Shown piece by piece: positions 17,534-49,856 of a stretch of 64,000 bases of DNA. The first letter of the stretch is position 1. Every line of letters begins with the position of its first letter. Both the position numbers and the translations under genes were made by a program. This stretch comes from Octopus vulgaris (lineage: Eukaryota): the NCBI GenBank assembly GCA_951406725.2, contig OX597814.1, positions 155,930,001 through 155,994,000 of the forward strand, given 5' to 3'. A model generated the notes under the pieces. It saw only the letters and a list, made by a program, of their open reading frames with translations, ran no database searches and had not been told where the DNA came from.

Positions 17534-17774
17534 TGGAGTAAACTCATAAATCTGAAACAAGGTGGAAAAAAGAGTACTCAAATACCAGTGGTAGAGTAAT
17601 ATGCTTTATTTAAAAGCAGCAAAAAATTCAACAAAACCTGTTACTCTAAGTTTCACGTTCCCGTTCGTCGGACAGTTTTTGCTAGAAAAATCTAGCAAAA
17701 ACTGTCCGACGAACGGGAACGTGAAACTCAGAGTAACAGGTTTTGTTGAATTTTCTGCTGCTTTTTTAAATAAA

Positions 17775-17780
<6 letters not shown>
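17533..17780. mobile_element. Foldback element (family B) inserted in (TA)n, arms 17599-17686 and 17691-17780
   Basis: Near-perfect inverted repeat with a 4-nt loop. Each arm carries an HHR motif. Confidence 0.85.
17702..17739 (+). ncRNA. Minimal type I hammerhead motif, CCGACGA core (mirror copy 17638-17675 on minus)
   Basis: CUGU-CCGACGA-ACGggaaCGU-GAAA-CUCaGAG-UA-ACAG. Confidence 0.75.
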
Positions 17781-17840
<60 letters not shown>

Positions 17841-17894
17841 GCATTTAGATATATACATACATTTATACATATATATATAGATATATATATATAT

Positions 17895-17932
<38 letters not shown>

Positions 17933-17952
17933 TTATATATATACTTACATTT

Positions 17953-17995
<43 letters not shown>

Positions 17996-20656
17996 TTTAT
18001 TTATGTATATATAATATGCAAATACGTAGATAAATAGGCATATCTCTATATTTGTGCATCTATCTAAAATAAGTATATATATATATATATACATATATAT
18101 ACATATATCTGCATGTGTGTGTATGTGTTTGCGCGCGCGCACTTCTTTGAATGTATGTGCTGCGTAGCTTAAATTCTGCATTATTTACAACGAATGTTTT
18201 GCATTTTGCATTAATGTTGACATGCAAGTAATTCATTTATTGTTAAATATGATAATACTTATTATTTGCATGCTTTTGAGTTACGAGACAATATGTTGTG
18301 ATATTAGTATTTTCTTTGTTGTTAATAAAATTTCATCATAATATTTCTCTCTCCTTTATGACTTTATACACTCTTTAACCTTTTATCTTGTATATCACTA
18401 TATATCGTGTAAGGCTTGTACAATGATGCAATAAGGATCTTTTTTTCATTTTATCAGTACAACTGGACTACTTGAATCCATATATTGTTTGCTTAAATAC
18501 ATATATATATATATGTTGTTTTTTGCACTTCTTACACCAGTACGATGACCACTGACAAATTATTCTACCCTACATTTTAAAGACTATCATTGTTAGCAAT
18601 TCCCGTTGCTGAAATATAAACTCAATGACATCTTCCTCAACATCGTTAAGGCACTCGTCTGCGCGCGAAGGCAGGATCTCCGTCTTAGCAAGAGAGACAT
18701 TGAAACGTATACTAGGGGTGTCATACTTCTGTATACATATATTAACGCAGTAAAAGACATTATTTATCTATTAAATAGTGATATAAAGAAAATTTTAATA
18801 AAATCAGAATGTGCGTGTTTGAACACCCACATGGAAATAAATGAATCTGGTAATATATCTAATTATTCATTTTCCTGGACTTGTAAATAATTGGAAAGAT
18901 CTGTTTATTTCCTAATCTTCTTAGGTATTTATCACGAAATAAATACCTTCTTTCTAATGGCGGATTTATTAGATTATAACTGTTTCTAGTGTATAGAACT
19001 TAAGCCACAGTTAAGTAAGTCTTTCTAATTAACATACCAGTAATGTAGATATGGTGAGGGTAGTGATCTACACATATTTTTTAAAGATGATTTAAAATGA
19101 AACAAGGATTTCCAATGAGCATAAAATTCTAACCTTGCTAAAAAAAGTAAATAAATGGTTAAAATGGGACGTTTATCTTTCAGTATACAGAAAAAAATGG
19201 GATCGATATCGATATGTTCTGCATCTAAATTTCGTTGATCTTTATCGGAGAAATATTACCCATCTGTCCACGGAGAGATTTGTAGCTTGGATTTATGATG
19301 TCTGCAAAAGCAATAAAAAAAAACGCAGCTAAAATGATTAGAATATATATGTATGTACATTATGCTTGTGTGTGCGTGTGTGTTTGCCTACCATACTCAT
19401 CGTACCCTGCACAATGGTTTTTGTACACACAGAACACAAACACACACACGCACATACACTTACATGCACATGCATACGTGCATATTTGTGTGTTTGTGTA
19501 AGCCTTGGTGGATGTGTATTTCTGTTTTTTGTTCCTGTCATCATTAAATCCTTCTCTTTCTTTTACTTGATTCTGTCTTTGGATTGTAGCCATGCTGGAA
19601 AAATGTCTTGTGGGGTCTTAGTCAATCAAATAGACGCGGATATTTATCTTACATTTGGCACTTATTCCATCTGACACTTCTCACTCAACTGCTAGACGTT
19701 CGGTTCGCAACCATACTCCCACAGTACGGTTCTTAGAGGAACACATTTCTGTAACAGTTCCGAGTAATACTTTGAAATTGAATCTGAGAAACGGAATCTG
19801 TGTGAAAGATCACTGTAAAACATATGCGTGAAAATATGTGCATACACGCACACACATATGTATATATTTTTGTTTAAATGTGTAGGAGTATATGGATTTA
19901 CCGCCTGGACTTTTTAATTGTGGAGTTGAAATCAAAATTCGTTTCCTGACTACATCGTATTCAAGGAGTTTCGATGTTTTTACTGTTGACGTCCGTACTA
20001 AAGGTTTTGGTACGAATATTACACATAAATGATAGTTGGATGTGTTTATGAATGCGTGTGAGAGTATTTTTTTAGTCTGTACATCAATCTGTGCCTGTTT
20101 GACTCTGTAGTTTGTTCTAAGTGTTTGTAATAGGAATATGATGGTTGAAAGTTGATCAGAGTCCTAGTTTAAAATGATAAGAGAGAGTGATGTAGGGATA
20201 GATATCGTATGGAATGTAAATATGTGTTGATACTTATGTGAATTTGTATACGTTTTTTTGTTTCTGTTCCTTAGAGTATATGTTCGATAATACATACACT
20301 CTCAAATATCTGAATGTTCATGCTTGCAATAAGATTGCGTTTGAGTATTGTGCACACACGTTGTATTCCTGCAAGTGTGGATAATTCTCCAGTTTGAAAT
20401 GGGCATTTGAAGAGATTTAAAGAGATTGAAGAGATTTAGTTACATACCAACTGCCTAATACAGTTTGGCAGATAATGGATTTACTATTCCCTGGAGAGAT
20501 GGTATAGATTGTAAATGCAAACTAAAGCATGAACTGCTATTTTATCTATCGACACAAAAATTCATTAGATTGCTTAACTAGCCGAAACTGCAAAGCCACT
20601 TTCCATATTTCTCTTGTTAATGACCACTGTTAAACGCTATATATATATATATATAT

Positions 20657-20832
20657 AGTTAAAATTCACAGAAAAGCAAAAGCGAAGACGGGTGTATAAG
20701 CAACAAGCAGGTGTATTAGTTTGACGCTCGGGAAGGTGAGAAACTGTTTTACGTTTTGAGCCTACGCTCTTCAACAGAAAGGAACACGATGAAATAAACA
20801 GAGAGAATAAAAAAAAAACTTGTGGAGTTAGC
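20657..20832 (-). mobile_element. Family A short repeat with HHR-like motif (20746-20781)
   Basis: Minus strand ccttt-ctgttga-a-gagcgtaggctc-aaaa-cg-ta-aaac. The 3' end abuts (TA)n. Confidence 0.65.
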
Positions 20833-20975
20833 AGTCAAAGCACATAAATTTGAAACAAGGTGAAAAAAAAAGTACTCCAATAACGGAGGTAGAGTAATAT
20901 GCTTTATTTATAAAGCATACATGTATGCATGCATACATACATATATACATACATACATACAAACATATATATCTA

Positions 20976-21037
<62 letters not shown>

Positions 21038-21108
21038 CATACTTTATTTAAAAGCAGCAGAAATATAACAAAAGCTGTTACTCAGAGTTTCACGTTCCCG
21101 TTCGTCGG
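20833..21108 (-). mobile_element. Family B copy interrupted by a microsatellite
   Basis: 20835-20917 and 21041-21108 match 17540-17672. HHR core ccgacga-acgggaacgt-gaaa-ctctgag-ta-acag on the minus strand. Confidence 0.75.
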
Positions 21109-21740
21109 TTAGTCTTGTGAAAATAAAACAGAAATAACGATATGATCAAAACTAGTTCAAGGATACACCTTTGAAAATGGATTTGTTTCATTGGTCCTTT
21201 CAAATAATGGTCTTAAGCATGCGATAAACAAATTAAACAAACTAAATTAATTCAATATAAATTCATCCTATTATGAAAAATCGAGGAAATCTCAAATCGA
21301 AGAGCGGATTCAAAATACATATTGTCAATAATTATATATGAAATATAATTCGATTAATACAATTAATACGTTAAAAATTAAGATATTTTACAACAGTATA
21401 TACACATACTAACCCATCAATATACATATATACATCAAAATACATTGATGGGATATACACAGACCACATACATATGCAGACATATATGTAAGACGTAAAT
21501 ATATAGACACAAATACACATATACATATGTATACGTATGTACGCAATCTTGTCTGCATGCAAAAATCACTTAGTGTATACATATAGACTGAAGTAAAACG
21601 CAGAGAGGGGTAAAGAAAAAGAAAAGGGAAGAATATTAGTGAAAGAAGTGAGTAAGAGAAGAGGAAGGGCGTGCAAAGTTAAGATGAAATGGGTTAAAAA
21701 GAGAGATAAATATCAAAGTGATATTAATTTTTGACATTAT

Positions 21741-21790
21741 CGATTTTGATATTGTCAATATGGACATATCGGCAATAACGCGCGTCGTCG
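21741..21790 (+). ncRNA. Decayed hammerhead-like motif related in layout to 12078-12173
   Basis: cgat-tttgata-ttgtcaatat ggac atatcggcaa-taa-cgcgcg-tc-gtcg. Stems are intact but the core is mutated. A purine-rich tract precedes it, as at 11600-12040. Confidence 0.4.
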
Positions 21791-21936
21791 TTTTAGTGTG
21801 TATTATTTAGTATAATAATTTTTAGTACAATATTAATAACATATTTAAATGTATATTTTATTATAGATGATATATTTCATTATATGTTGAATTACTTTGT
21901 GGAGGTTCTGTCACTTAACTCTCTATATGTACACAC

Positions 21937-21967
<31 letters not shown>

Positions 21968-21999
21968 CATGTATATATACATGTACACACACAAACACA

Positions 22000-22075
<76 letters not shown>

Positions 22076-22290
22076 CATATATATATACTTATACACATAT
22101 ATAAATATACATGTATATATACGTTTAAATATTTGTTGTGCAAGATTTTTTATGTGAAGTCGTGTGTTGAAACAGATATTGTTATATTTCGGAATGGTCA
22201 TATTGCCAGTTTAGCCCATAAAAACACACGCACTATATATTTGGTGTTATTTTGCTTCAGTGATATTTATTTTTTACATTAATCTTAATC

Positions 22291-22340
22291 TTATTTCGGC
22301 CAGAGTTCTTTCGTCCCACTCCTGTGACCGCATCAGTGGT
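22291..22340 (-). ncRNA. HHR-like variant downstream of the Naiad-like ORF
   Basis: Minus strand CUGAUGC-GGUCA..GAGU..ACUC-UGGCC-GAAA. Stem II is clear; stems I and III are not convincing. Confidence 0.35.
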
Positions 22341-24245: not shown

Positions 24246-24334
24246 ATCTACTGGGGCAGAAACTACTAGTAGATGTTTAAGAGGTAGACCGCCTACAATT
24301 ACTTCTATGGCTAGGAAGACACATATAGAAAGAC

Positions 24335-24970
24335 AACATGTTTTCATTCCAAAGGAATAAATGGTGCATTATGCAATCTTGTCATCAGGAAAGAAAGGGA
24401 TCCTATCTCGACAACAAGACAAACAAAAATTTCGATGACTGCCTACATGGTAAACAAAGCGATAATGAGTGTTTTTTTAAAGAAACCGTTAGAAGAATTG
24501 ACGTCAAAGATAGATAGTAGGAAGAGAAGGGTTAAAGAAATAATAGGTAGGGAACAAGTGGAGAGGGAAGGGTACGTTGACTGAAAGAATGTTCTGCACT
24601 GGCAGAAATACACTTTCTACTCATATAAATGATAACGATAGTCACTGTGGTTTGAACAATTAGCTTTACGTCCACCCCACTTCTATAGAGAAATTCTTTC
24701 CTAAGCCTTCGAACATTCTTTCAATCAACGTACCCTTCCCTCTCCACTTGTTCCCTACCTATTATTCCTTTAACCCTTCTCTTCCTACTATCTATCTTTG
24801 ACGTCAATTCTTCTAACGGTTTTTAAAAAAACACAGTCATTATCGCTTTGGTTACCATGTAGGCAGTCATCGAAATTTTTGTTTGTCTTGTTGTCGAGAT
24901 AGGCTCCCTTTCTTTCTTGATGAGAAGATTGCATAATGCACCCTTTATTCCTTTGGAATGAAAACATGTT
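24335..24970. repeat. 260-bp inverted repeat (24335-24594 / 24711-24970), 116-bp spacer
   Basis: The arms are reverse complements with scattered substitutions. The right arm runs into an HHR-like motif at 24911-25001 (UUGAUGA-GAAGA...UCUUC-GAAA-CUU..GAG-UA). Confidence 0.9.
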
Positions 24971-25127
24971 CTCTTCGAAACTTATGTCGAGAGTAAAGGA
25001 ATTTTGTTAACATCTTCGTTCGACTCCATTCTTTCCTTTATTTATATACTTATATATGTACATATATATAAATACATATATATATATATATATATATATA
25101 TTACACTCCCACACACATATATGGATA

Positions 25128-25206
<79 letters not shown>

Positions 25207-25529
25207 ATACAGGCTCACGCATGTCTGACTATAGAATTGGAACACATTCTCTTTTAAACATGTTCTCTTACTGACAACACATTTGCACAGATTTGATATT
25301 TGCATAAAGAAATGTTTCTTATTTCTTTGTTCGTTCTTCATGTTCAATTGGGACACGAGCTTTCCTAAATCAATTAATCCATTAAGTCTTAGATTCTATA
25401 TCAGTCCTATACTCAAAATGATAATGGTGCGCATTGCTGCTTTCATGCAATATGCGTTGGGTGATTTTAATAAATATTCGACGCAAATTTTATTTTTTCA
25501 TCGGTTAATGTGTGTATCTGTGACTGTAA

Positions 25530-27885: not shown

Positions 27886-27952
27886 CACTGTCTAGAGAAA
27901 CAGTTGTACATGAATATGTTTCTCATAACCTTGATAACGGGGATAATATTGG

Positions 27953-28156
27953 TTTCAAATTTTGGAACAAGGACAGCAATTCCAGAGTAGAGGCTATGTC
28001 GATTTTATCGACACCAGTAATCAACTGGTACTGATTTTATCGACCTCGAAAGGGAAAGTCGACCTCATTGGAATTTTAACTCAAAACTTAAGACGGACGA
28101 AATGCTGCTAAATATTTTGACCAGCGTACTGACAATTCACTCAGCTAGATGCCTTA
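27953..28156 (-). mobile_element. SINE family 1 copy
   Basis: Reverse complement of the family 1 head and core. Confidence 0.75.
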
Positions 28157-28186
28157 AGGCCGATGATTATATTAATATGAAATTTA

Positions 28187-28404
28187 AGGTGGTAAGCTGG
28201 CAGAATTGTTAGCACGTCAGCCACCATTCTTAGCATTTCGTTGGTTTTACGTTTCGAGTTAAAATTACAGTGACGGTTGAGACGATGCCGTTTATTTTTT
28301 CGGAGTCGATAAAACGGATACCAGTTGAGCACTGAATTCGATTTAATCGACTATCTCCATCCTGGAAAATTTCAGGCCTCGTGCCTAGAGTAGAAAAGAA
28401 TATT
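28187..28404 (+). mobile_element. SINE family 1 copy, head-to-head with the previous copy
   Basis: ggtggtaagctggcagaattgttagcacg...gtcgataaaacggataccagttg...aatttcaggcctcgtgcctagagtagaaaag. Confidence 0.75.
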
Positions 28405-32800: not shown

Positions 32801-35651
32801 AGTTACTCAGGCTTGCATCAAATGATATAGAGGCGTGTACCTTGCATCAAACGATGTAGAGGTGTGTACAGAAAGAGGAGGGGACATATTGAACGGCATA
32901 TATTTAATTTGGCATCTAAATATATACATAATATCATTAAAGGAGCATTGAAGTGTTACATGATTCAATAAAACAATGTTTGTAGCATATATAGATTCAA
33001 AAAAAAACAAGACGAAATAGATGAAATAAAAAAAAAGAAACGTTTTAATGTAAGCATCGCGACCCCGTAAAGCGAGTCTTTCGCCCTGAATTGCATATGG
33101 CTGATTGAAGCTACAGTAATGCAGGCACCTCTCTGTGTAGTTGAAGTGGCTTAAACGTTGCCAGATGTGATACTTATTTTCCAAATCACGCCCATTAGTG
33201 ACACTGTCAATCTATATGAATATGGCAATTAATAGTAAATAAGACAATAGTCAAATTAGGACATAAAGGGTAAAATGTAATGATTGATCGTATGAAGAAA
33301 CTGAATGCAATAAGATAATACATTTGTGATCTTTAAAATCAGTTGATCATCTTCACCGAACTTGTGAAACAAGTTTTTTGAAAATTGTAATTTCTTTTCT
33401 TGAAATTTACTCAATAAAAAATAGGGCGTATTCCTATTCAAAGGAAAAATAAAGCAGTTATAATTTTCTCCTGAGAACTTTGCATTCTTAAACAAGCAAT
33501 TAGAATATCTATTTTTTATACACAAACTTACATCTGTGTTAATTTTACTGTACATGTTCCTTAAGTATTTAAGCGCGTCCGAAACGACTACCATCCAAAC
33601 AAAGCATACTCTTTTATAGAAGGTTGTGACTCCAATGAGATTTAGCTGCTAGCTTCAGTAAATTGGCTACACAAAGAATAGTTCAAAGACTCGATACGAC
33701 GCATTTTTATAAATATCGGAATAGATTTTAATTCATAACTCCGTCACAATTACCAATTTGTGTAGAAAAAGCCACCGAGACAGCAAGGGACTTACAGCGA
33801 AATCAATTAATCTTCATGATTAGTAGCTATTTCTCCCTCAAACTATCCCCCAAGAACATAAAAAATACATTCGACAATGTAACCCCGTAGTCCGAGATGC
33901 GCTATTGTTGAGAAATAGATGGCTTCTTAATGACAGAACAATTTAATCAGAGTTCACTCTGGAAACAAATTGGCTGTTGCAGCAACAACAACATATTCTA
34001 TGAAGTTGATACCATCTAATCTCAAGTTATACGTAAAACACCAGTTACAATACTAAACCGTGTGTGCTTGTATTTTCCAGTGATTTTGTTGTTTACAGCG
34101 GTGAGCTATATCGGTTATGTGATTTATTCAGAGCAACTAGATGAATTGGACCATATTTATCTCAAATGACTCCGACATCGGCATCCCTGAGGTATAAGTG
34201 GCTAGATACGGACATTTCACAGAGATGGTGACAGATAACGAACTGGCAACGTTTAACTCGCCGTCAGTAATAAACGACCATAGATTACAGGCATACATAC
34301 ATAAACATCGAGATTTACACTCATGTAAACATATATATATATAAATATATGTGTGTGTGTGTGTGTGTGTGTATAAATATAGTTATATTCATATATATAT
34401 ATATATATATACGTATGTGAACACACATAAATACACATACGTGTGCGTATATGTGATAGTCCGAGCCTTTATATTTTTGTTTTCATTATTTATCCGTTAT
34501 CAAGAGATCGTTTAACACTATTCTTTTTAAATGCGTGCCATTGTCATCAAAAATGCGTGTTCCACGCTCCCGTTTTCTCGCTCATTGATGGCATTCGTGA
34601 TAACAAACGCAGTTCGTTTATTTATCATTGCATTACTAATTTAAATCTAAAGTAAATAGAGCAAATTCTCTATCACATATGAAATTAATTTGTTTAAATA
34701 ACATGCTTAATATTTCTAAAACAGTCCTAACTAACTGCTTACTCACTTAGCTACAAAGAAAAGTCGAGTTGGTTGGTTCTTACATAAACAAATATTCTTA
34801 TGCATTCGTGTTCCTGATAATTCTGCTCTTTAGTAAAAAAATCTCTGCTTTCGTGAAGTTTTCTTATAAGTTTCTGTATGGTTGTACCTCGTCGAGAATC
34901 GGCTGCGTAATTTTCAATCAATGAAGACTTGCTTCATGTATGAATCATGCCAAATATCATAAGTTCACTAATACTTTTCAAACCAAATTTAAATGTGACA
35001 TGAATAATTTTATGAGTCCCGAAAAACTTCAATTTTCTGATAAATCTAATAAAACAACAAAATTATCTGTCACTATTTTTTATACAAATATTTTCCAAAC
35101 ATAAATGACAAACATAAATATTTAAAATAGTGTAAATTTTTAGTATAAAAATATGATTCAGAAAGTTGCAGTCCATCTGAACTCGAAGCTTATCTTGCGC
35201 TTAATAACCATAAGGGACATTTTGCCTCAAATCCTGAGTGTAAATAAGTTGTGTACAAAATGGAGACAGGGTTAATAACGAAGAATATTTTACATAAAAT
35301 TAATTATAATGTTAGGAAAACAACGAGCCTCTAGGAATGGAATAACAGCAAAACAATGATTAATTCATACGATAGTATTAATATTCAATGCGGGTCTAGG
35401 ATCATCCGAATTAACATTACTGAAACTTATTCTTGTAGGAATTTATTTCACTCATTACTGCCCGATATTTTGCTAGAGTACATAATAACATAGAAGGTAG
35501 TCACATAGTTTTCAATTTTCACCTAGGGAAGTTTCTGTCTGGTTTCGGTCCTGTGTTAACATAACAAATCCCACGAGTTTCTTCTTTGTCATTACGGAGC
35601 CGTTCGATTATAGAGAGATATATGATCTCATCGAACAATATATATATAAGG

Positions 35652-36308
35652 ATTAATAAATCTCTGAACGAGATATAAACAGTAACCGCTCGACAACGTA
35701 AAGTGTACTAGCCATCTGAATGTGGCTAGCCACTGGGGGTGGGGTGTTACTGATGCTTTTAGCCCCAGGAGATCAACGTCACCAGCTGGCCTTAGACACA
35801 AAATTTCAGTGCCCTTGTGTTATTTGCAAAGGGAGGTCATCCTCCCTCGAAAACCTAAGTGATACATACGGACTATAGTTTCAAGGTAATTGTCTCTCGT
35901 CAACGCATGGTAAACACCGATTTTCGATGAAGGAGACCCTCTGCAAATAATACTATTTAACGTTTTTCACAGCAAGCACTGTCACTGATTTAGAAAAACT
36001 GTCTGAAAGCATTAATAAATCTCTGAACGAGATATAAACAGTAACCGCTCGACAACGTAAAGTGTACTAGCCATCTGAATGTGGCTAGCCACTGGGGGTG
36101 GGGTGTTACTGATGCTTTTAGCCCCAGGAGATCAACGTCACCAGCTGGCTTTTCGAGGGAGGATGACCTCCCTTTGCAAATAACACAAGGGCACTGAAAT
36201 TTTGTGTCTAAGGCCATCTGGTGACGTCGATCTCCTGGGGCTAAAAGCATCAGTAACACCCCACCCCCAGTGGCTAGCCACATTCAGATGGCTAGTACAC
36301 TTTACGTT
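35652..36308 (-). mobile_element. Retrozyme-like 359-bp tandem unit (1.4 copies) plus a 159-bp inverted copy, flanked by (TA)n
   Basis: 35652-35790 repeats at 36011-36149 (period 359). 36150-36308 is the reverse complement of 35695-35853. Confidence 0.85.
35865..35909 (-). ncRNA. Type I hammerhead ribozyme motif
   Basis: Minus strand CAUGCG-UUGACGA-GAGacaauuacCUU-GAAA-CUAUAG-UC-CGUAUG: 6-bp stem I, palindromic stem III, GUC cleavage triplet. Confidence 0.8.
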
Positions 36309-36324
36309 AATATATATATATATT

Positions 36325-36607
36325 GATAGAAATGATAAGACAACAAAAGAATGAAAGAGACCTTGATATTATGTAATAAGAGGAATTTATTTGTAAATGT
36401 AATATGTGACAATTATTCGGCAGCCATGATAAAACTCCGAGTTTCGGATGTCGGGGTGGAAATCCACGCCGCCATCTCTTCGGTTATCCGGCCATGGGAA
36501 AAATGCATTTCTTTCCGATGGCCGGATAACCGAAGAGATAGCGGCGTGGATTTCCACCCCGACATCCGAAACTCGGAGTTTTATCATGGCTACCGAATAA
36601 TTGTCAC

Positions 36608-36611
<4 letters not shown>
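36325..36611. mobile_element. Foldback element (arms 36402-36505 / 36506-36611) between (TA)n tracts
   Basis: Near-perfect ~210-bp palindrome centred on atgcat. The minus arm continues to AATAAA and then (TA)n. Confidence 0.88.
36525..36585 (+). ncRNA. Type I hammerhead motif, CCGAAGA core (mirrored in the left arm)
   Basis: GAUAA-CCGAAGA-GAU(A/G)gCGGcGUGGauuuCCACcCCGaCAUC-c-GAAA-CUCgGAG-UU-UUAUC. Confidence 0.7.
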
Positions 36612-36657
<46 letters not shown>

Positions 36658-37062
36658 GCCGTACTAAATTAGAAATAAATTTCATACACGCAAATGGTTT
36701 TATCTTTGATAACTCACTATCTTCATTAACGAGAAGACTTTATTCACACCCATAAATATTTTTGTTTAAAAATAATTTAAAAATCAGAAATGCTTCAAAT
36801 GTCACTAAATTTAATCATACATAAATACGAATTTTAACTTAACTAAATGAAAAATTGACATGCATTAGTAATAAATCCTACCTGTAGTCTTAGTTTTCAA
36901 ATACTCATCATTAACAATATTAGGAGGATCCCCAGCTACTCATCAAATAAAAAAAAGTTGATAAAGAGATTCCTTTATACAATGCTTACAAGCTACATAC
37001 ATAAGACTCAACTCTACAAACTTTGCGAAATGTTATTTTTTGCAAACAAAATATTTAAAAAT

Positions 37063-37247
37063 TCCCTTTGCAAGGCGATACGAATTTGAATTTTATCATA
37101 CGGAATATGAGTGTTATTTGGTATAAAGAGGTACCCTATCATAGAAATTAGAGGAAATAAAGTAGACAATAGTGGAGTAGAATTTATGGATGATAGTGTT
37201 TTCAGGTAAATGGACAGAAATCGATAAAGTAACTTGGTATTTTACAA
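37063..37247 (+). repeat. 185-bp inverted duplicate of 39998-40182
   Basis: Reverse-complement match, with one mismatch seen by eye. Confidence 0.9.
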
Positions 37248-37446
37248 ATATTTTTCAAATCTACATCATATCCGTAACTGTGAACTATTGCCCATGAACT
37301 GATATGAGTATAAATCTCCCAAGGGGCTTCGTCAAGTATATCGTAATTTTCTCACACCTCCTCCACATAGCATTTTTTTATCATTGTTTGATCGTTCCTA
37401 TAAAAGCTTAGTAAAATTGTATTGTATTATTGCAATATTATTTCTC

Positions 37447-37519
<73 letters not shown>

Positions 37520-37802
37520 TGTATTTGTCATGACTTGTATTGGTATTTTGTACTGTATTCCACTTTCACTCACAACTCCACTTCTACCAAAAATAATATA
37601 TCTCCTGACCTACATCAACCAATCATAGCCTTCATTTATCACAGTTTCATAATATTATGTTCCACCATATCACCTCAATCCTCTTCGATTTCAATTTCAT
37701 CCATAACCTTTCATTATTTCATTTCAGCAAATTGTATTTGCTTGAAAATCTATATATAAATATCCTGCAGAGTGAGTTGTTCGTCGAGGAAGCGGTGCCT
37801 AC

Positions 37803-37847
37803 CATACGTTGATAATAGGCAAACACCTTGAAACCTAGGTCCGTGTG
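37803..37847 (+). ncRNA. Type I hammerhead ribozyme motif, U3-A8 core (copy 1)
   Basis: CAUACG-UUGAUAA-uAGGcaaacaCCUu-GAAA-CCUAGG-UC-CGUGUG. Stem I extends through gaagcgg/ccgcuuc and uauccugca/ugcaggaua. Predicted cleavage after 37841. Confidence 0.82.
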
Positions 37848-38162
37848 TGGTTTCCGCTTCATCGGGGAATTATCTCCCTTTGCAGGATAGAGGACGCCGT
37901 GATGGTGTCAAGCCTATCTGGCGACGTTGATGTTCGCCTGGGGCTAAATGCAACAGTAACACCCCCACCACCCTGCCCTATCCCTAGCCATATTCAGATG
38001 GCTTTAGTCCCTTATGTTATGGAGCAGTTACTGTCTATATCTCATTTAGAGAATTATTATTGCTGTCGAACAGATTTTCGAAATCAGCAAATTGTATTTG
38101 CTTGAAAATCTATATATAAATATCCTGCAGAGTGAGTTGTTCGTCGAGGAAGCGGTGCCTAC

Positions 38163-38207
38163 CATACGTTGATAATAGGCAAACACCTTGAAACCTAGGT
38201 CCGTGTG
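38163..38207 (+). ncRNA. Type I hammerhead ribozyme motif (copy 2, identical)
   Basis: Same sequence 360 nt downstream. Predicted cleavage after 38201. Confidence 0.82.
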
Positions 38208-38649
38208 TGGTTTCCGCTTCATCGGGGAATTATCTCCCTTTGCAGGATAGAGGACGCCGTGATGGTGTCAAGCCTATCTAGCGACGTTGATGTTCGCCTG
38301 GGGCTAAATGCAACAGTAACACCCCCACCACCCTGCCCTGTCCCTAGCCATATTCAGATGGCTTTAGTCCCTTATGTTATCATATTTTGTTTTTCATTTA
38401 ATAAGTAAATTATTTAGCTTGTATTTATTTCCTAATGTCTAATAATTTATTTCCTTGTTTTTAATCTAACATCTAATTCTATTCTCTTATCTTAACAATT
38501 TCGTATCAACATGCTGTATAAAATATTACTAATTAAACATTTTTTTCGGAATTTCGTCTTATCCAGTTTCATTACATCCCACTACAAACATTTCTTGTTT
38601 TCCTAACTATAGATCTCACCCTCTTTTTTACCGGACATTAGCGCCACCC

Positions 38650-41600
38650 TCTCCCTTTTTTTTATCGTATGCTCTCATCGAAAAGATAATAGTACCAGCA
38701 AATCATTGGGATCGATGGCATCGACTGATTACTAACTCCCCAAATTCCTGGACTTTTGCCTAAATTAGAAATTACTCCTATAACTATTACTGAATAAAGA
38801 AATAGCGGTTCTCTCCAGTTTTGATGTTCTTCCGGATTCTTTATGCTATATCTCTGATCCTTCCTTAGAGAAAACATTTTCCTTAACGCATGCGATGTTT
38901 TGAGGACAGTCACCCCTTGTATACTTCCAATGATGTCAGGTAGTTCGAAATTTTAATTTCTTATAGATGGTTTCCAGTGCACTAACAACTATGCTCATCG
39001 CGCTAATTCTTCAGGCTGTATGAATACGCTGTATTGTGAAAGCTAGGCCATGCTACTTACGGGTTTGTCATTCTCGTCTCTGTTCTCTTAGGGCGGTAAC
39101 GCTATAAAAATGAAAACCCATTCATTGGTCTCTTTTCATATGAGTGTGGTATTTGATAGATTTTACTGAAGTATCTTACCGGTGCAGTTTGTCACATCCC
39201 GAGTGATTTTCAACTTGCTCATTCTCTGTAACTGGAAAGAGTTGGTGTTCATGCCACTCATAGTTACACTCTAGCTCGTACTTTACCAACCGTGAAATGT
39301 TGTATCGTTTTCTATACCCCTGGGCCGATTCTCAACATACACTAACTACAATCGTTTACAGATTAGTTTCCACACAATGGACATACATATATTGCTCATG
39401 TCTTATCAATGTTGTACTTGATAGCATTAGTTAGCAAAACTTGTTCTTGAGCAGCAAGGAACAAACCTTTAGTCTCCTTTAAAAACCATATCTTAACCAT
39501 ATCCAGAATTCCTCACCTCGATTCGATATTTGTTGGAAAAACTCTCCATGTAGTACTTTCTCTAGTTTTCTATCTTACCCTTCATGAGTCTTCCTTTTAA
39601 ATTCCTTAAGCTTCTGGTTATCATCCCTAGTCACCTCACACATTGTGACCCGAAACATCCATTTATCTATATTCTTAGTATGTGCATTCAATGATTTACC
39701 TTCTTTCCTACCACACTTCTCTACTCTATGCAATCTTTCCCTCCGGCATTGTTTGGAAGATAGCCCTAGCTACATTACTTCTGGTATGAAAGTATTTGTG
39801 CTTATCTTTCTACTTCTTTCTATGCTGACCTGTTTCTCTTTTGTCAAATCTACAGGTTATTACATCAGCCCATGCTTACAATTTAAGTGTTAATGCCATG
39901 CCATTTGTCATATTGATTCATTTAGCTTGAATCTACACGATTTAGATTTTTTCTTCTAATCTGCTATGATCATCTTGATTTCAGTCATCTGGTTTCATTG
40001 TAAAATACCAAGTTACTTTATCGATTTCTGTCCATTTACCTGAAAACACTATCATCCATAAATTCTACTCCACTATTGTCTACTTTATTTCCTCTAATTT
40101 CTATGATAGGGTACCTCTTTATACCAAATAACACTCATATTCCGTATGGTAAAATTCAAATTCGTATCGCCTTGCAAAGGGAGACAATTTAATCCCTTCT
40201 AGCCCCGTTAAACGTCAGATTATCCATCAATAGTGGGAAGTGGTTGTTATGTTTTTTCAACAGACTCGATCTTCAATCTATAACCAGATTTTATTTTCAA
40301 AACCAAAGTCAATGGTAACAATAAAAACAAACAACTGTGGCAAAGGTCCTCAACCTGCTGTCAAACTTGTCTTTGAATTCCTAGTACTGTAGCTTACTCA
40401 AGATATAGTTTGAGCTGCCCCGATCATCTCCCGGCATTTCCTAATCTACGAGTGACATATCATGCCTTTAGCATTTGATGCACTGTTCCTTTAGATCCCT
40501 CCCCCGATTCTTTTATTCATCAGCTATTAATGGCTTTCTTTCCAAGAGTTCATACTGTATTTCTCCCACTATTCCATATCACGAGAAACCAGACTATCAC
40601 TTGGTAGTTAATAACATAAGCTCCAGCTTTTGTTGAGACCGGGTAAATTTGCCTCTTCTCGTTTTTCTCCATCTACAATTTCGAACACCAGGGTCTGGTT
40701 AGTTCTAAACAGTCTATTTTGTTTGAACTGTAGGCATCTTTCCTCATATCATCTGATCTTTATTCCATCAGCTTTGATCTTTTTGAATCAAACAATGTTC
40801 CATTTTCTTACGGGTGTTATATCACTTTGTCAAGTCACTTATTTCTTCACCTTACCTCTTCAATCTAACTCAAATTATTTTTTTAATTATCCATATTACC
40901 TCCGATTTACGAAAATTGTATATTGCTTCTCTTTCTTTTCTCTTCCTTCAACATATACTCATTCTTTCCGTAGTGACATGTGCAGCGCCATACATGAACA
41001 CGATTCCTCTTTGTGATAGTTTTAGTTTGAATTTTCAGAACCTTTTCTTTTACTTCCCCATCCTCCGATATCAGCTTTGAAGACGAACGAAATACTGCTA
41101 AGTATTTTGACTGGCGTGGTAACAATTCTGCCAGCTTACCGCCTCTGAAGTTCCTCAATGACGGCAATCCTTTCTTCTCTACAAAAAACATCACCTGTAG
41201 AAGTTCTGTCATGCGAATCTGTGCTGATCTCTCCTCGTGACTTTTCAGCTAAAGGGTTATATTGTGGTTCTCTACAGCTGGCATATTTCCCTCTTCCATA
41301 TCCGAGCTATGCTGATTCCCTTATACAACGGGTATTTCTTCCGGGACTGCATTTCATTTCTCATTGCCTCTGTGCTTTTATCTTGTACCACATTTTCTAA
41401 TCAAAACTTCATATTGATTTGAGTCGCTTCTTTTCATTGACAACCTTCAGCTCATCTTGGTGGTAAAATTTTCTCCAGGGATGTGATCATTTATTTTATA
41501 GTCTTGTTTTTCTAGCTGACTCCTGATGTAACTTGCAAAGAACATTTTATTGTCCTCTTTTGACCTTATTAATTTCATTTGTTGTTCGTCAACTGCAACT

Positions 41601-41700
41601 TGATTATGATCGGGCCTACGAGATAGTTTACTGGACACCTGCTTGACGAGACACCTTCCCTAAAAACTTCAGTCCTTTTAACAACGTTACATTTAAATCC
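38650..41700 (-). mobile_element. Decayed R4/Dong-like non-LTR retrotransposon (RT, CCHC, restriction-like endonuclease)
   Basis: Manual translation remnants LQGD (~40170), YLP..GGK (~39750), ETKGLFLAAQEQVLLT (~39450), CPLCG (~39375) and VIVIGVI (~38780). Boundaries are approximate. Confidence 0.65.
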
Positions 41701-41984
41701 AGTTCTTGACGTTTTTCTAACACATTAGGTATATGTTGTAAGTTTTCTCAATCAGTAGATTTCAACAATTCAAGTGGTCATCCAAGATTCTTAGAGGCCC
41801 GTTTGTTCACATTTAAGCTGGTTACTTTGTGCTTGTCGCAACAAATAGTATTTAACTGTGCATCAAGTAAATATAAAAGAAATAAGATAAGGGAGACAAG
41901 AGAAGGAATAAAATTGATTGAAGAACAGATCTTTATTTTAGAGGTTATTAACTCCTAGATGACTTTTCTTTTAAAGAAATTCAG

Positions 41985-42200
41985 AGGCGGCAAGCTGGCA
42001 GAATTGTTAGCGCAACAGGCAAAAGACTTAGCAGTATTTCGTCCGTCTTTACGCTCTGAGTTCAAATTTCACCGATTCTCAATTTGCTTTTCATCCTTTT
42101 GGGGGCGATAAATTAAGTGCAGTGAAACATTGTGGGTTAATATAATCGACTAGTCTCTCCCCGCAAAATTTCAGCCTTTGTTTCTTAGTAGAAAGCATTA
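41985..42200 (+). mobile_element. SINE family 1 copy
   Basis: ggcggcaagctggcagaattgttagc...gagttcaaatttc...tttcatccttttgggggcgataaattaagt. Confidence 0.8.
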
Positions 42201-42462
42201 TTATTACTATACATTAATATCATGCTTACATTATTTATTCACCCACATGAGGCTTTGTGCTATGCGAATATATTTCAACTGCAATTATGTGCATGAAATA
42301 CATATTGCGTAATCAATGAAGAACTATCAAAAGCATAAATATACACATAATGGCCTCCACTAATGCATCAGACAGGTTTATGATTAATTTATATACTAGC
42401 AGATGGGTGCCCTCAGCTGGGGAGAGAATCCTATTATGATATTCTAGAGAGAGATTACCAAA

Positions 42463-42535
42463 CTGAGGAGATGTTTGTTGGGTTACGCCTCTCTTTTTCC
42501 TTGTATAAGAAGCATCGAAAAAACATATTTACTTT
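42463..42535 (+). ncRNA. Hammerhead-like motif, CUGAGGA core, weak stem I
   Basis: CUGAGGA-GAUGUU...AGCAUC-GAAA-aa..uu-UA, followed by AATAAA and a microsatellite. Confidence 0.4.
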
Positions 42536-42751
42536 CGTATTTTCCCCACATCGACTTCTCGTAATAAATGCATACATATATATATATATATGTATGTGTA
42601 TGGAAGTGTACATACACATCTATCTATCTATCTACCTATCTATCTATCTATATATATATATATATATAGATGCAAAGGAATATGGTACTTAAGTTAGATT
42701 CACTAGAATTTTGTATGGTGTTATCCATATAAATCCATGGGGTGATTATAA

Positions 42752-43094
42752 TCAAAATAAGCAAAAAGAACATATTCGGTAATTTGGTACGATCGTTTCA
42801 CGCTACATCATTTTATTAAACATTGTAAGTATTACAACAGTTTTAAAATGTTGAGCAATCATCAGCCATTTATAGATGTTTTCCATTAATACATATTTTC
42901 AAATTAATTGATAACAGCCCTCTCTATAATGTTATCAATTAATATGAAAATATGTATTAATGGAAAACCTCTATAAATGGCCGATGATTGCTCAGCATTT
43001 TAAAACTGTTGTAATACTTACAATGTTTAATAAAATGATGTTGCGTGAAACGATCGTACCAAATTACCGAAGATATTCTTGTTGCTTATTTTGA
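42752..43094. mobile_element. Foldback element, 165-bp arms (42752-42916 / 42930-43094)
   Basis: Reverse-complement arms with a few substitutions and a 13-nt spacer. Confidence 0.88.
42785..42868 (-). ncRNA. Type I hammerhead motif, canonical CUGAUGA core (mirror copy 42978-43061 on plus with CCGAUGA)
   Basis: UGG-CUGAUGA-uUGC...GCGu-GAAA-CGAUCG-UA-CCA, with palindromic stem III. Confidence 0.7.
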
Positions 43095-43874
43095 GTGCGG
43101 ATTCAGAATGTTTGTATACTCTGCTAGCTTTCCTTGCATGATCAGTGAAGCTATTAGGAATCTGAAACTCATCAATGGATTATTTTATCCGAGCGTATTT
43201 CGGATCTTACGTAACTGTGAGAAATGAATACTATGAAAATTTCATATCTCATTACTAACATTTCATTAAATTTTATTCAAGCATACATCCATTATGTCCA
43301 TTTTGCTCAATACAAAGAAAACAAAAATTATATATTAGTGTGAATGACTTCAATTTTTCTTCTTTTCTCACCTGTTAAATGATATACATTTTTTTTATAT
43401 ATATTCGAGATCACTTAGTTAACTTACTTTATCTTATAGAATTTGCTTTAGGCTGAAACAAATGATGTAATCTTCGTTATTTACGCACTCGTTCATCATC
43501 GACAACGTCAGTACGATGAGTGAAGTAGATAATCGGTGTTTACTTGGAATATATATCATTTAAGTAAATTAACCTCGACATATTTCCCTCCCCTGCTTTG
43601 TTTTCTTTTCTTCATGCGATCACCCAGAGAACGTTCTCGATGTCTAGGATATCATTGTATAATGCCTAATGACTGCGAATCGATTAATGGCTTTCATCAT
43701 CTACTTTATTTCAAAATTAATTTAAAAGCAAAATTGAGAAAAATACATTATGCAAAATGATATATATGCATATATACGTACGTACATGCGCACATACATA
43801 CATAAAAGCATATACACATACATACGTGTTTATGTGTGTATGTACGTATCTATGTATATATGTACTTTGTAAGT

Positions 43875-43963
<89 letters not shown>

Positions 43964-45294: not shown

Positions 45295-47719
45295 ATGGAT
45301 CACTTTTGCGTCCGTTATTTTAGAAATTTTGCCTTTATGAGGGTCATTTTTAGTCATTTCGGTTGTTTGTGGGTTTTAAGGATCTTAAGTGTGTGTAAAA
45401 TGTCCTTTAATTTGGAATCCTTATGCAACATTGGTAAATTTTAGGTGACAATGGGGAAGGTTTCTTTGTTTCTGGGGTTGTATGTGTATATGTACGACAG
45501 TATTTTCGGGGAAGGTGTGTTGCTGTGTTGAACTTTTCTTAAGGTTTCTATGTAGATATGTGTTGCAAGTCTGATTCCATCCTCTATGAGATGAACTGGA
45601 CAGTGGTTGTTAATCGGGGTGTTTTTGAGATCTTACAGTGTAAAGTCTCTGTTATTTTGTCTGACACTATTGGTCATATCCTTCTTGCAAGGTTCAAGGG
45701 GATGTTTGTTTTGGTGTCTTGGGTGGCAGGAATTAAATAGTAGATATTGTTTAGCGTCTATGGTTTTGTAAAATATCTCTGTTTCTATTTTTAGGTTTAT
45801 TTTATAATTAATATATCCAAGAATCGGAGTTCCTTGTGGTGGTATTCCGTTGTAAACTGTATCTTTGGGCTGACGCTGTTCAATAGTCTTTTGAATTTTA
45901 GGAGTTAGCCTGTGTTTTCATTCCAGAGAATGAATCAGTCATCTAGGAGTCTTTTCCAATTTTCTTTTATGTATTGGGAAAGGGGGTTTCCAAAGGTAGA
46001 TAACGATTTCTGGTAATTATTATTTCCAGATAGCCCATTGTTAGATTCTCAATGACCAGGGCGACCCTAGTGCCCATGTTATTTCCAGATTTTTGTTGAT
46101 AAAGCATATTGTCAAACATAAAATGGTTGTTTCGTAGGATGAATTCAACCGATTCAATTATGAATTCTTTGCTGATCCTTTCCGGTATTTCTTCCGGATA
46201 TTGGTTCAGCCAGAACTGAATTGCCTCTAGCCCATAATTATGAGGTATACTGGTATATAAATTAATCACATCAAATGAAACCATGATTGTTTCTTCCTTG
46301 ACTTCTTTGGAGGTGATTTAACATGTCCAAGTCATATCTAATATAGTTATTGATGTGTTTAAGAAAGGGTTTCAGGAGGATGTTCATAAATAGACTTAGT
46401 CTGTGTGCTTCACAGGCTGGGCCAGTTATAATGGGTGGTAATTGTAGGTCCGCTGGGTTTGTTGCATGTATATACGTCTTCGGTGATTTTTTATGTTTTC
46501 ATTTATAATCTGACTTTTGTTGAATTTTGGTAGACTGTAGAAAAGGTTAGGTTTGCATTTAAAGTTTGTTAAATAGTTAATTTCTTTGGTTGTTAGTTCT
46601 TTTCCATGGGTTTTAATTAGTGAGGACAAGATTTTCATTATTTTTTGCGGGGTGTGTTTAGTGATTTTTTCGTAATGTTGACTGTCATTCAGCATAGGGA
46701 TTAATAGATTTCTATAGTATAATGTGTCTATTACTACCACTGCACTTCCTTTATCTGCTTTCTTAATCGTTATATCATCTTTATTTTGAAGTTCTGTTAG
46801 TTCCTTCCATTGTGTAGTGCTAAACCTTTCCCTAATAGCCCGCTCTCTGTCAGGTTAATTTAGTATTATTTTGATCTGGAATTTGCGTGGAAGAATAATT
46901 GGTGTTGATTTCATCCATCTCTCGTAGATATCTGCTCTGTTGGAATTTTTTATCATATTCCAGAAAGCTAGTTTTCTATTATGGAAGTTTGTATTCCAGA
47001 TGTTCTCTACTTTTCTTTTTGTTAGATTGACTTGTAAGTATGACGTCCTGGTGTGTTTCATTTGATGTGCGTTGGTTGTTCTTCGGTTTGTTTGTGAAGA
47101 CCGACTTCAGTGTGGTGCATAGAGTGTTTAAATCTTTACTAATCTGTTCCTGTTTTAAACTGAATTCATTGTAAGTGTCGTGGAGAGAGAGTTGTTCATT
47201 GTTGGGTTTGTTAATAAACATTGAGTTGAGAGTTGTGCATAAAAGTTGTAAGCCATTACTAACCTGATCTGTGAGATGAGTTGTTTCTTCAATGTTTTTC
47301 CTCTCCCGGGCGAGTAGGTTTGAGTTCTCGATTTTGTTATTTATGATAATGAGGTGCGATTTAATATTTTTGAGTTCTTTAAGTATGTCCTAGTTTGTAA
47401 TTTTATCTGATGTATTGGTCTTCTGTGGCATTTTCGGTTCCACGTGTTTTAGCTTATGGTTGAGGGAGTTGGTATGTGAAAGAACGTCGTTGAATGTACA
47501 ATAGACAAAAATTAGGTGAAAAAAATTAAAAAAGACGTGTTATATGGTTAAAGAATATATTTAAATTGTTATGCTAGAAAAATGTTATAAAATTTTGTGT
47601 ATAGTAACATTGTTTTTGGAGAAATAACCATCATATTTTCTTCTCAAATTTCTCAAATTTCTTTGCCAATACTGTGTCATCTCTTTGCTAGATATCACAG
47701 TACGAGAGTTCCAGACAGG
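45295..47719 (-). mobile_element. Degenerate Penelope-like element (N-terminus and RT)
   Basis: IKKADKGSAVVV (~46740), FYSLPKFNK, VSFDVINLYTSIPH, NNHFMFDNMLYQQKSGNNMGT, IFYKTIDAKQYL and TNIPLNLARR. Multiple stops and frameshifts. Confidence 0.88.
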
Positions 47720-48297
47720 GGAAGGTAATCGCTCAGGCGAAGATGCACTCTGCACCGACAGCAGATTGCATTCCTAGAATACAGAATGATACCCTTTAGT
47801 GAACACATTCAGAAATGCGCAAAGCAACTGCTACCACAATTTGTAATCTTTACATTATATCAATGTGCCATTGGAACGCCAACACAAGTTAAATTAAATA
47901 AGGAAACCTATTTCATTGGAAAATATAAGCCAAAACTTGACCATTTCTAGCATTTTTAAATAAGGAAACTTACCTCACAGTATAAAAATATAAAGCAAAA
48001 CCTAGCATTCAATTCTTTCTAAATCAAAACATGTTAAATTAATAAAAGCTAATCATTCCCAACATTTTTGATTATCTCTTTTATACCGAAAATATCCCTG
48101 ATTATCTTATCCTGTCTGGAACTCTCATACTTCATAGCAAAAAGATGACGCAATATCGGTAAAGAAATTTGAGAAATTTGCAAAGAAAATACGAAACCGA
48201 AATTTCTCCAAAAACAATTTTACTATACACAAAATTTTATAACATTTTTCTAACATAACGATTTAAATATATTCTTTAAAACCATATAACACGTCTT
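47532..48297. repeat. Diverged ~187-bp inverted repeat at the PLE 5' end (47532-47719 / 48111-48297)
   Basis: The arms align as reverse complements (aagacgtgttatatgg..ccagacagg / cctgtctgg..ccatataacacgtctt). Confidence 0.8.
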
Positions 48298-48307
48298 CTG
48301 TAGTTTT

Positions 48308-48680
48308 CACAGGCTTGGCTGTGTGATAAAAAGCTTGCTTCCGAAACACATGATTCCGGGTTCAGTCCCACTGCGTGGTACCTTGGTTGTGTGTTTCTAC
48401 TGTAGCCTCTGGTCAACCAAAACCTTGTGAGAGAATTTGATAGACGGAATCTGAAAGAACCCCATCGAATATGTGTGTGCACGTGCGCGTGTGAGTGCAA
48501 CTTTGTGTCTTTGTCTCTCACCGCCGTTTGACAATTAATGTTGATGTGTTTACGTTCTCTCAACGTAGCGGTTCGGTAAAAGGGTCCATAGAATATGTAC
48601 TACATTTAGCAAAAATCCTGTAGTTGATCTGTTCGACTTTAAGGCGGTACTCTGAAACGATTAAAATATAAAAGAAAAGA
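48308..48680 (+). mobile_element. CORE-type SINE family 3, near full length
   Basis: tRNA-like head (gggttcagtccc), CORE-like segment, (GT)-rich middle, aaggcggt..ctgaaac tail. Confidence 0.75.
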
Positions 48681-48701
48681 TTATATACATATATATATAT
48701 A

Positions 48702-49540
48702 CAGGGTGCGTAAGTTGTTTGAAGACATATTTATGTTTATAAAAAATACAGATATACAATAACAGATAACATTATATATTTAAAAAATGCTGTGAGGATA
48801 AAAGTAAACCTTCTTTTCTATAATTTTATTCAATAAAGCTACTTTCAGCATCCGCTTCTATATGAGATCTAAATCATCAATATGCTTGAATCAAGTTGTC
48901 TCGGTTCATTTTGGACATTACTTTCACTATGACAGCTTTCAAAGAATCTTTGGTGCTATGGGCGTGTTTATTGAGCTCTCTCTGAACAACGCTCCACATG
49001 TAATAGTCCAATTGAATGATATCTGGGGAATTAGGAGGCCGAATTTTAGGGGCTATGTAATCGTGAAAATTTTCAGCCATCCATTCCTCTGTTAATAGAG
49101 GCATGTGTGATAGTGCAGAGTCTTACTGAAACACATATATCCTTCCATTACATACACTGTCTATCCAGGGCTTTACAAGTGTTTCAAGTACCTCAATGTA
49201 GGTGAAAAAGTTGACTCGATAGCCTTGTGGAAAGAAGTAAGGAGGCATCATATGTCCTTCATTGCTGACAAACCCTAAAACCATGACAGTTGCAGGAAAT
49301 TTTGTATGCATAACGCTTGGAACTTCAGAAAGGTCTGCACATAACCATCTGTCATTTCTTCTGTTAAATATTTGACCTTGGTCGAAGTTTTTTTCGTTTG
49401 GAAAAAAACAAATCAAATCTTCCTCTGCAAGATTTTTCAGATTTTTTAAGTACCTTTTAGATCTGTTGTAGTAATTTTACTTTTGCTTTTTCGGACAAAT
49501 TGACTTTTCCTCATCATATCAGACTTACATCTGATGTCTT
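48702..49540 (-). mobile_element. Tc1/mariner DD37D (maT-like) transposase relic with one terminal repeat end
   Basis: The in-frame ORFs give VFQ*DSALSH...PPNSPDIIQLDY, with 37 residues between the second and third Asp. TA-CAGGGTG terminus at 48700-48708. Confidence 0.85.
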
Positions 49541-49594
49541 GTGTATATCCCACATGGGTTTTATTTACATGCATTTTTATGTATATTTAGATAT

Positions 49595-49856
49595 ATATTT
49601 ATACTTTTTAATTACGGAGAAGTACTTGCATAGCAATTGATTTGATCTGAGATCGTGTGCTGAAACGAAAACAAATGCAGCGTGGAAGGTGTTTGTAAGC
49701 CATTTAAGAAACACACAAAAGCCGTTCGATTCACTTCAACATTTAAGTTTAATTTGTCAAAATATTTTCGTCGCTTTAAGACCGCGACCTGTTCACTGAC
49801 AAAAATCCGAGTTTTGTCAGTGAACAGGTCGCGGTCTTAAAGCGACGAAAATATTT
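49595..49856 (-). mobile_element. Short HHR-bearing element ending in a perfect ~45-bp-arm hairpin (49760-49856)
   Basis: aaatattttcgtcgc..ctgacaaaa / atccgag / ttttgtcag..gcgacgaaaatattt. The left boundary is approximate. Confidence 0.75.
49753..49803 (-). ncRNA. Type I hammerhead motif with swapped G3-C8 core
   Basis: UUUGUCA-GUGAACA-g-GUCGCggucuuaaaGCGAC-GAAA-AUAU-UU-UGACAAA: 7-bp stem I, 5-bp stem II, palindromic stem III. Confidence 0.75.

Follow-up and report, generated by a model that had tools for sequence, protein, structure and literature searches.

The window analysed here is a 64,000-nt stretch of Octopus vulgaris contig OX597814.1 (GCA_951406725.2, forward-strand positions 155,930,001-155,994,000), part of a 2.8-Gb assembly that is rich in microsatellites. 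It contains six inverted repeats (foldbacks) with hammerhead ribozyme (HHR) motifs, which we designate families A (17599), B (24335), C (35695), D (36402), E (42752) and F (49760) after their positions in the window. We consider it likely that these foldbacks are 3' ends of Penelope-like elements (PLEs), carrying an HHR and arranged head-to-head through twin target-priming on one RNA. An original prediction, made from the window sequence, had listed all six; self-BLAST of the window recovered an inverted repeat at each position and no DNA-level match between any two, in line with the predicted origin from different families. In every family two kinds of 3' end occur, one long (tailed) and one short (untailed), separated by 45-150 nt. 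The predicted coordinates end where the symmetry ends and thus omit the tails: the tailed left arms reach 17533 (A), ~35650 (C), 36323 (D), 42669 (E) and 49614 (F).

In family A the tailed arm (17533..17685, minus strand) consists of an 84-nt arm and a tail of ~70 nt, with a type I HHR at 17642-17671, and the untailed arm (17691..17775, plus) has its HHR at 17706-17735; both outer ends lie in (TA)n. The centre between them (17686..17690) has extra A's in this copy, most copies having a fixed one-base centre. Family B comprises an inverted arm (24330..24594, minus), which is 3'-truncated within the HHR and has a non-TA flank, and a sense arm (24595..25038, plus) with the last codons of a PLE open reading frame (ORF), its stop at ~24630-24632, a 3' untranslated region (UTR) and an HHR at 24917-24988; the sense arm's 3' end, at 25038, is untailed and runs into a TA-rich repeat. 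The tailed arm of family C (35650..36152, minus; HHR 35871-35903) includes a partial tandem copy at 36007-36152, the untailed arm (36150..36308, plus) begins downstream of the HHR, and 12 bp of AT-rich sequence, present at both 35637-35648 and 36309-36320, probably represent a target-site duplication (TSD). Next to it lie the tailed (36323..36506, minus; HHR 36433-36483) and untailed arms (36507..36607, plus; HHR 36530-36580) of family D, the latter terminating in (TA)n. C and D share the short (TA)n at 36309-36322, an example of foldbacks accumulating in (TA)n left by earlier insertions; nested cases were also seen at positions 4345-4952 of locus L227 and at L087.

Family E, which corresponds to a PLE 3' UTR, has a tailed arm at 42669..42916 (minus; HHR 42788-42865) terminating in (TA)n and an untailed arm at 42930..43094 (plus; HHR 42981-43058) with a non-TA flank. 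The tailed arm of family F (49614..49803, minus) is followed by a shortened centre and right arm (49804..49855, plus). Its HHR (49760-49796, minus) combines G3 with C8, a compensatory swap of the usual C3-G8 pair that is kept across the family. The right arm stops at the cleavage nucleotide of the HHR. We rejected this end point as a general rule for F arms, as it holds for the window copy and for 0 of 24 other copies. A seventh foldback, family H (47522-48307), had been missed. Its HHR is decayed in the window copy, but 5 of 7 other copies have one in the sense of the right arm, so that it too has outward polarity. That the five intact tailed arms of the window are all left-sided was put down to chance, family F having 20 on the left and 19 on the right.

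The predicted polarity, with the left arm HHR-sense on the minus strand and the right arm on the plus strand, holds for all six families. On the minus strand the descriptor detected motifs in five left arms (A, C, D, E and F), on the plus strand in four right arms (A, B, D and E). Three arms without a full motif were oriented by homology to the partner arm: the left arm of B, cut within the HHR, the right arm of C, beginning downstream of it, and the right arm of F, ending at the cleavage nucleotide. For B the polarity is independently confirmed, because the last codons of the PLE ORF sit on the plus strand in its spacer. The motifs were scored with a custom type I descriptor that allows the core variants of these families (cut-off score 14); at this score it gave 45 matches in a blind genome sample of 60 blocks of 10 kb (600 kb), one in a Markov control and two in reversed sequence. 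A stricter descriptor did not pick up D, E and F, and the broader version was used instead; an Rfam scan of the window returned no hammerhead and only miRNA hairpin matches below threshold. Several cores are variants (C4, U3, G3-C8), and the ribozymes are putative ones, known here as motifs only.

The blind sample supports the same rule. A homology count at family level, restricted to families present at at least two loci and to opposite-strand neighbours of the same family within 600 bp, gave 15 outward and no inward pairs (P=6e-5), although the 15 pairs come from nine families and are thus not fully independent; beyond 600 bp there was one outward and one inward pair. Similarly, 11 of the 80 inverted-repeat rows in the sample (10 loci) had an HHR motif, and all faced outward. 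The outward polarity is therefore real for ribozyme-bearing foldbacks, but the prediction that all foldbacks share it was too wide, since 69 of the 80 rows had no detected HHR. The window, too, holds inverted pairs outside the rule: those of a dispersed repeat (27945-28404, 41080-42049), an inward-facing pair of RT elements (12384-15997) and a 185-bp repeat on either side of an inversion (37063-40182). An earlier version of the homology count (20 inward, 22 outward) was discarded because it was contaminated by non-PLE flanking repeats.

Family B lies downstream of PLE coding sequence for a reverse transcriptase (RT) and a GIY-YIG endonuclease, on the same strand (ORFs in L226-L228). Against Atlas these ORFs matched RT clusters at 0.93-0.96 and, at 0.95, a cluster with GIY-YIG in 11% of its members; Pfam and NCBIfam gave no relevant match to them. 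Family E has an endonuclease-like sequence upstream, again on the same strand, in L229 and L230 (E about 1e-8). Judged by these coding sequences, families B and E are the 3' ends of PLEs with RT and GIY-YIG. A protein search scored 150 matches out of 3716 candidates, and many of these lie in open frames of about 900 aa. Of 20 ORF loci fetched, 19 have an HHR located downstream on the strand of the ORF, and the remaining one is 3'-truncated.

Among the PLE clades, the elements of B and E most resemble the Hydra clade, and the fetched ORFs appear Hydra-like by some features of that clade and not by others. Like the published members (PMC8557442; this and the other papers below are cited from the parts available to us), they have a DKT motif (20 of 20 fetched ORFs), no CCHH between GIY and YIG, CxxC and CxH around a conserved E and N (CxxC...CxH in 17 of 20), an HHR, insertion in (TA)n and a single ORF. 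In contrast, RWK and the CxCX5C linker were found in 0 of the 20, with RWL and an Asn/Ser-rich low-complexity linker in their place, and the octopus elements measure ~3.6 kb instead of under 3 kb. The insert between RT and endonuclease that replaces the Cys linker (L226-L228, L260-L279) is long and Asn/Ser-rich, as described for rotifer Penelopes, and many of the ~899-aa ORF copies are intact.

Families A, C, D and F were assigned to the PLEs by HHR, tail, TSD and layout; upstream of C and D no ORF was found within the 1.5-kb flanks. Family C also forms non-coding tandem monomers of 359 nt with a type I HHR (arrays L223 and L091). In this it resembles the non-LTR retrozymes, proposed derivatives of the pseudo-long terminal repeats (pLTRs) of PLEs (PMC7229834; bioRxiv 10.64898/2026.07.22.740005). 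Those elements are described as tandem arrays, the word 'inverted' being absent from the available text of PMC7229834, whereas A and F are inverted pairs shorter than a retrozyme dimer. The tandem monomers by which a retrozyme is recognised were seen in family C only, not in A or F. In the window, positions 37724-38380 (plus) hold a tandem of two HHR-bearing relatives of family C (~70-77%), the first with the tail region and the second untailed.

The most regular feature of the foldbacks is the pairing of one tailed with one untailed arm. Among BLAST-chosen copies of family A (40 loci) this pairing was found in all 36 two-armed copies. A second set, taken against selection bias, comprised 30 of 35 exact matches to the A centre (10 of the 30 shared with the BLAST-chosen set; class of L303 set by eye) and had the pairing in 28 of 29 assessable copies, with one untailed/untailed, no tailed/tailed and one interrupted copy. 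For the other families, all BLAST-chosen, the figures are 33/39 in F (the rest being three truncated, two untailed/untailed and one tailed/tailed), 11/13 in D, 6/7 in C, 5/9 in E and 6/13 in B, where the other seven rows are truncated or doubtful pairs. Among full-length loci an inverted partner reached the 3' end in 11 of 19, and all 11 were tailed/untailed; the main arm was the tailed one in nine and the partner in two, so either end can be the long arm. Solo untailed copies occur as well. The strict pairing of a long with a short end suggests two reverse transcripts begun at two cut target strands, and each arm begins at a fixed template site of its own, an adjustment to the model of the original prediction.

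Direct repeats of 10-14 nt resembling TSDs were present at the outer ends of 10 of 19 non-microsatellite pairs, as against 0.6% of 342 mismatched pairs; these lengths are approximate because the search window extended 6 nt into the element. Among tailed/untailed non-microsatellite pairs of C and F the count was 10 of 14. The nine misses among the 19 include one nested copy and one B row whose reference stopped short of the tail end. The prediction had noted that several foldbacks end in (TA)n; there is indeed a preference for (TA)n, but it is not required, as non-microsatellite targets occur. It had further proposed that both ends of a break in a TA microsatellite prime cDNA synthesis and that the two cDNAs join. 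Two target-primed cDNAs joined at their template-5' ends remain the best model, while the random break gives way to staggered endonuclease nicks as the most likely source of primers, given the 10-14 bp TSDs and the non-microsatellite targets. Microhomology between the internal start site and the target is present in the templates of A, B and D and slight in the non-microsatellite copies of C and F, so that we make no claim of it. Empty sites were looked for in contigs of four public runs covering 35000-43500: none of the joints listed skips C, D or E, and three contigs ran into the left junction of C.

The same features bear on the possibility that the foldbacks are miniature inverted-repeat transposable elements (MITEs) or foldback DNA transposons targeting TA repeats. 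Like MITEs they are small, non-coding, palindromic and numerous and have AT-rich targets; A and F moreover have a fixed size and centre and are located in (TA)n, and TSDs of ~10 bp resemble those of Mutator-type transposons. However, the outer ends are not mutual inverted repeats, a tail of 45-150 nt being present on one side only, the TSD length is not fixed (10-14 nt, approximate), the joints of B, C, D and E are variable, many copies are solo arms, tandems or truncated to varying extents at the inner end, and the outward HHR occurs in all families. Since B and E run into RT/GIY-YIG ORFs, the MITE reading is already refuted for these two families, and overall we regard it as close to negligible. 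The predicted retro-derived origin is thus supported.

The arms of one copy share sequence variants far more often than expected. In family A there were 26 shared variants against 6.5+-2.1 in permuted pairs (one poly-T length marker included), and the excess was repeated in 19 new A copies (8 against 2.0+-1.5, P=0.0013); in family F the numbers were 79 and 24+-6. Some shared variants are private to one copy. We therefore favour the view that both arms of a copy derive from one template arm, as far as their variants can tell. An alternative is dual priming on two RNAs, for example one per subunit of a dimer, with each subunit held to a different start site. It would require no strand displacement, would account for the overlap of the arms and for the few copies with discordant subfamily markers, and agrees with the dimer predicted for a PLE protein (PMC11167929) and with the dual-priming concept (PMC2837659). 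On the other hand, copy-private variants are common to both arms far above chance, so both RNAs would have to derive from one source locus, and an extra rule would be needed for the strict tailed/untailed pairing. We consider this alternative unlikely.

The centres are informative in another way. Joints in B, C, D and E lie at variable points, and the centres of A (one unpaired base) and F (an imperfect palindrome of 18-20 nt) are fixed. The orientation of the centre relative to the tail is random (12:16 in A; about 19:14 in F, with 6 unclassified), and every F subfamily haplotype was found with both orientations. These counts bear on self-priming, or snap-back, in which a cDNA or antisense template folds at a palindrome and copies itself, an endonuclease then trimming one end to leave a one-sided tail. 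Self-priming is the published reading of palindromic PLE joints (PMC3846280), explains the shared variants and the centre-to-distal gradient described below, and could start from the perfect or near-perfect palindromic centres that exist. Yet it predicts a centre orientation fixed to the tail within a lineage, whereas the orientation is random in A, in F and within the F subfamilies; the full arm that supplies the centre can be the untailed one, which can also hold a whole ORF (L271, L275), and many joints have no palindrome. We rate it as rather improbable, below priming on two RNAs.

Further evidence comes from nine A copies with one inner-truncated arm and a surviving centre. All nine have one and the same central base on the full arm, beyond which just 2-9 nt of the opposite arm are read; had both centre classes been the source of such deletions, P would be about 0.0015. 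The constant base implies a template of one polarity that starts just inside the opposite arm, and since the full arm is tailed in five and untailed in four, either cDNA can supply the centre. For family F, nearly all copies have arms that differ at the centre; at marker +24, ~35 nt out, this falls to 7 of 14 and at distal markers to 2 of 21 (P=0.015), a gradient read from few, partly linked markers, with centre classes assigned by motif and about two doubtful calls. For A and F we favour a centre inherited from a palindromic master and not made afresh.

A palindrome could also be copied as a unit through a hairpin transcript, with later conversion or recombination homogenising the arms and flipping the centre and with deletions at the hairpin tip truncating the arms. 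The fixed centres and the strict tailed/untailed pairing of A and F would follow directly, and palindromes are prone to central deletion. Such copying does not cover B, C, D, E and the full-length elements with variable joints. Moreover, if both classes of centre had suffered deletion, the full arms should show either base, and not the same one in nine of nine; homogenisation is greatest far from the centre, and about half of the young copies would need a flip. We find this explanation very unlikely. In falling order, the rivals are priming on two RNAs of the same locus, then self-priming, then copying as a unit followed by conversion, and last MITEs.

Under twin target-priming on one RNA, the PLE endonuclease would make staggered nicks in the two target strands, ~10-14 bp apart. 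From each nick a separate cDNA would be primed on that RNA, one at the end of the tail and the other internally, 45-150 nt upstream. Synthesis of both would proceed toward the RNA 5' end, where the two cDNAs would be joined. For B, C, D and E the stopping points would vary, and joining would occur with little homology or none. The RNA of A and F may begin slightly inside the opposite arm of a palindromic master, so that the cDNA ends would be self-complementary, anneal and rebuild the same centre. The outcome would be non-autonomous elements of ~240 bp (A) and ~345 bp (F), MITE-like in look but moving as retroelements. We see an even chance that such priming is built into PLE integration, with one ribonucleoprotein priming both nicked strands at two fixed RNA sites, so that tail and inverted copy arise in one event and palindromic miniatures such as A and F, with a hairpin centre that joins the cDNAs, regenerate themselves.

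Several observations weigh against twin priming on one RNA. Overlapping arms on one RNA would need strand displacement between the cDNAs or a tandem RNA. The arms of some copies disagree at subfamily markers (L081 and L083 in A; 2 of 21 distal cases in F), which counts against a pure one-RNA model and fits two RNAs or later mutation. The exceptions to the pairing (the untailed/untailed copy of A, the two untailed/untailed and one tailed/tailed copies of F, and one of each kind among nine in E) also count against it, and the BLAST-chosen sets are top hits and not random copies. Microhomology at the joints is weak, with 1-4 nt in 7 of the 10 joints of full-length elements, while the values from B and C are confounded by mismatches to non-identical references, and the limits of the F gradient given above belong here too. 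Finally, the termini of A, C, D and F had no match among 20 full-length loci, so that no autonomous partner was found for them.

Much of this layout is known from PLEs with an endonuclease and an inverted pLTR that is truncated at its 5' end. Arkhipova et al. 2013 (PMC3846280) described inverted pLTRs whose TSDs measure 8-10 bp, with one of the pLTRs tailed and with palindromic joints, the head-to-head arrangement being the most frequent and ascribed to self-priming on an antisense template. The same layout and a (TA)n bias were reported together with the Hydra clade (PMC8557442), where the tail was ascribed to endonuclease resolution and the origin of tandem and inverted ends and of the one-sided tail was called undefined. 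The octopus families agree with these elements in the head-to-head inverted copy, the tail at one end, the HHR in the pLTR, the AT or (TA)n targets, the palindromes at the pLTR 5' end and the Asn-rich ORF insert, and their TSDs (10-14 bp) are of similar size. They differ in that the tail measures 45-150 nt against 30-40 in the published text, the counted tailed/untailed pairing is near-obligate, and A and F are ORF-free miniatures consisting of the foldback only, with an inherited centre. Head-to-head polarity, one-sided tail, TSDs and (TA)n preference are thus published PLE features; what the octopus copies add is the tailed/untailed rule as counted, variants common to both arms, and centres that are inherited yet free in their orientation. 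These additions favour twin priming over the published self-priming reading and point to MITE-like PLE miniatures.

The PLE protein PAc of a lizard cleaves and extends both strands in vitro and is a predicted dimer (PMC11167929). Its two start sites bound the tail and match the two sites proposed here, which we count in favour of twin priming; the paper leaves the steps after initiation unvalidated, and its main text, in the part available, proposes no origin for the inverted copy. Twin and dual priming were defined for L1 (PMC2837659), with which the foldbacks share priming by both target strands, central 5' parts, outward 3' ends and TSDs around the whole. The L1 pieces, however, are inverted fragments with an internal deletion, whereas the octopus arms overlap fully and their second start site is fixed and family-specific. 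PMC8969392 and bioRxiv 10.1101/2024.12.14.628481 hold, in the available parts, nothing decisive for this question. No case of PLE twin priming or of MITE-like palindromic PLE miniatures was found by title and abstract; PLE papers from 2002-2006 may anticipate parts.

The foldbacks occur at a density of roughly one per 35-40 kb (15-18 in 600 kb), which by rough extrapolation amounts to several tens of thousands genome-wide, and the genome also carries many intact PLE ORFs of ~900 aa. Copy statistics can tell the integration models apart. If the proposed origin is true, MITE finders would misfile palindromic retroelements of the A and F type as DNA transposons. In such genomes it is worth checking palindromic TA-associated repeats for an outward hammerhead and a tail before a MITE label is applied.

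Other repeats in the window include fragments of another family A tailed arm at 20838-20914 and 21038-21119 (minus), divided by (TA)n, an old imperfect foldback at 50215-50574, relatives of which terminate, on the strand of the right arm, with a 3' half that resembles an HHR, and solo hammerhead-like motifs outside foldbacks at 11208-11239 (minus), 12082-12169 (plus) and 48801-48880 (minus). Two decayed RT-bearing LINE-like copies, ~71% alike, lie at 12384-14243 (plus) and 14290-16970 (minus; inverted pair 12384-15997). Their 3' ends abut at a single (TA)n, an inward arrangement opposite to the polarity of the PLE foldbacks. The inverted neighbours at 27945-28404 and 41080-42200 belong to an abundant dispersed repeat without hammerhead (82 matches in 600 kb), which is probably SINE-like. 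Finally, a 185-bp inverted repeat of 99% identity (37063-37247 and 39998-40182) surrounds 2.75 kb. A contig of run X9 (organism D) runs from 37420 to 37063 and is there joined to 40183, with the inner segment inverted, and run X7 keeps the window order at the right junction; the repeat pair looks like a small inversion with breakpoint duplication.

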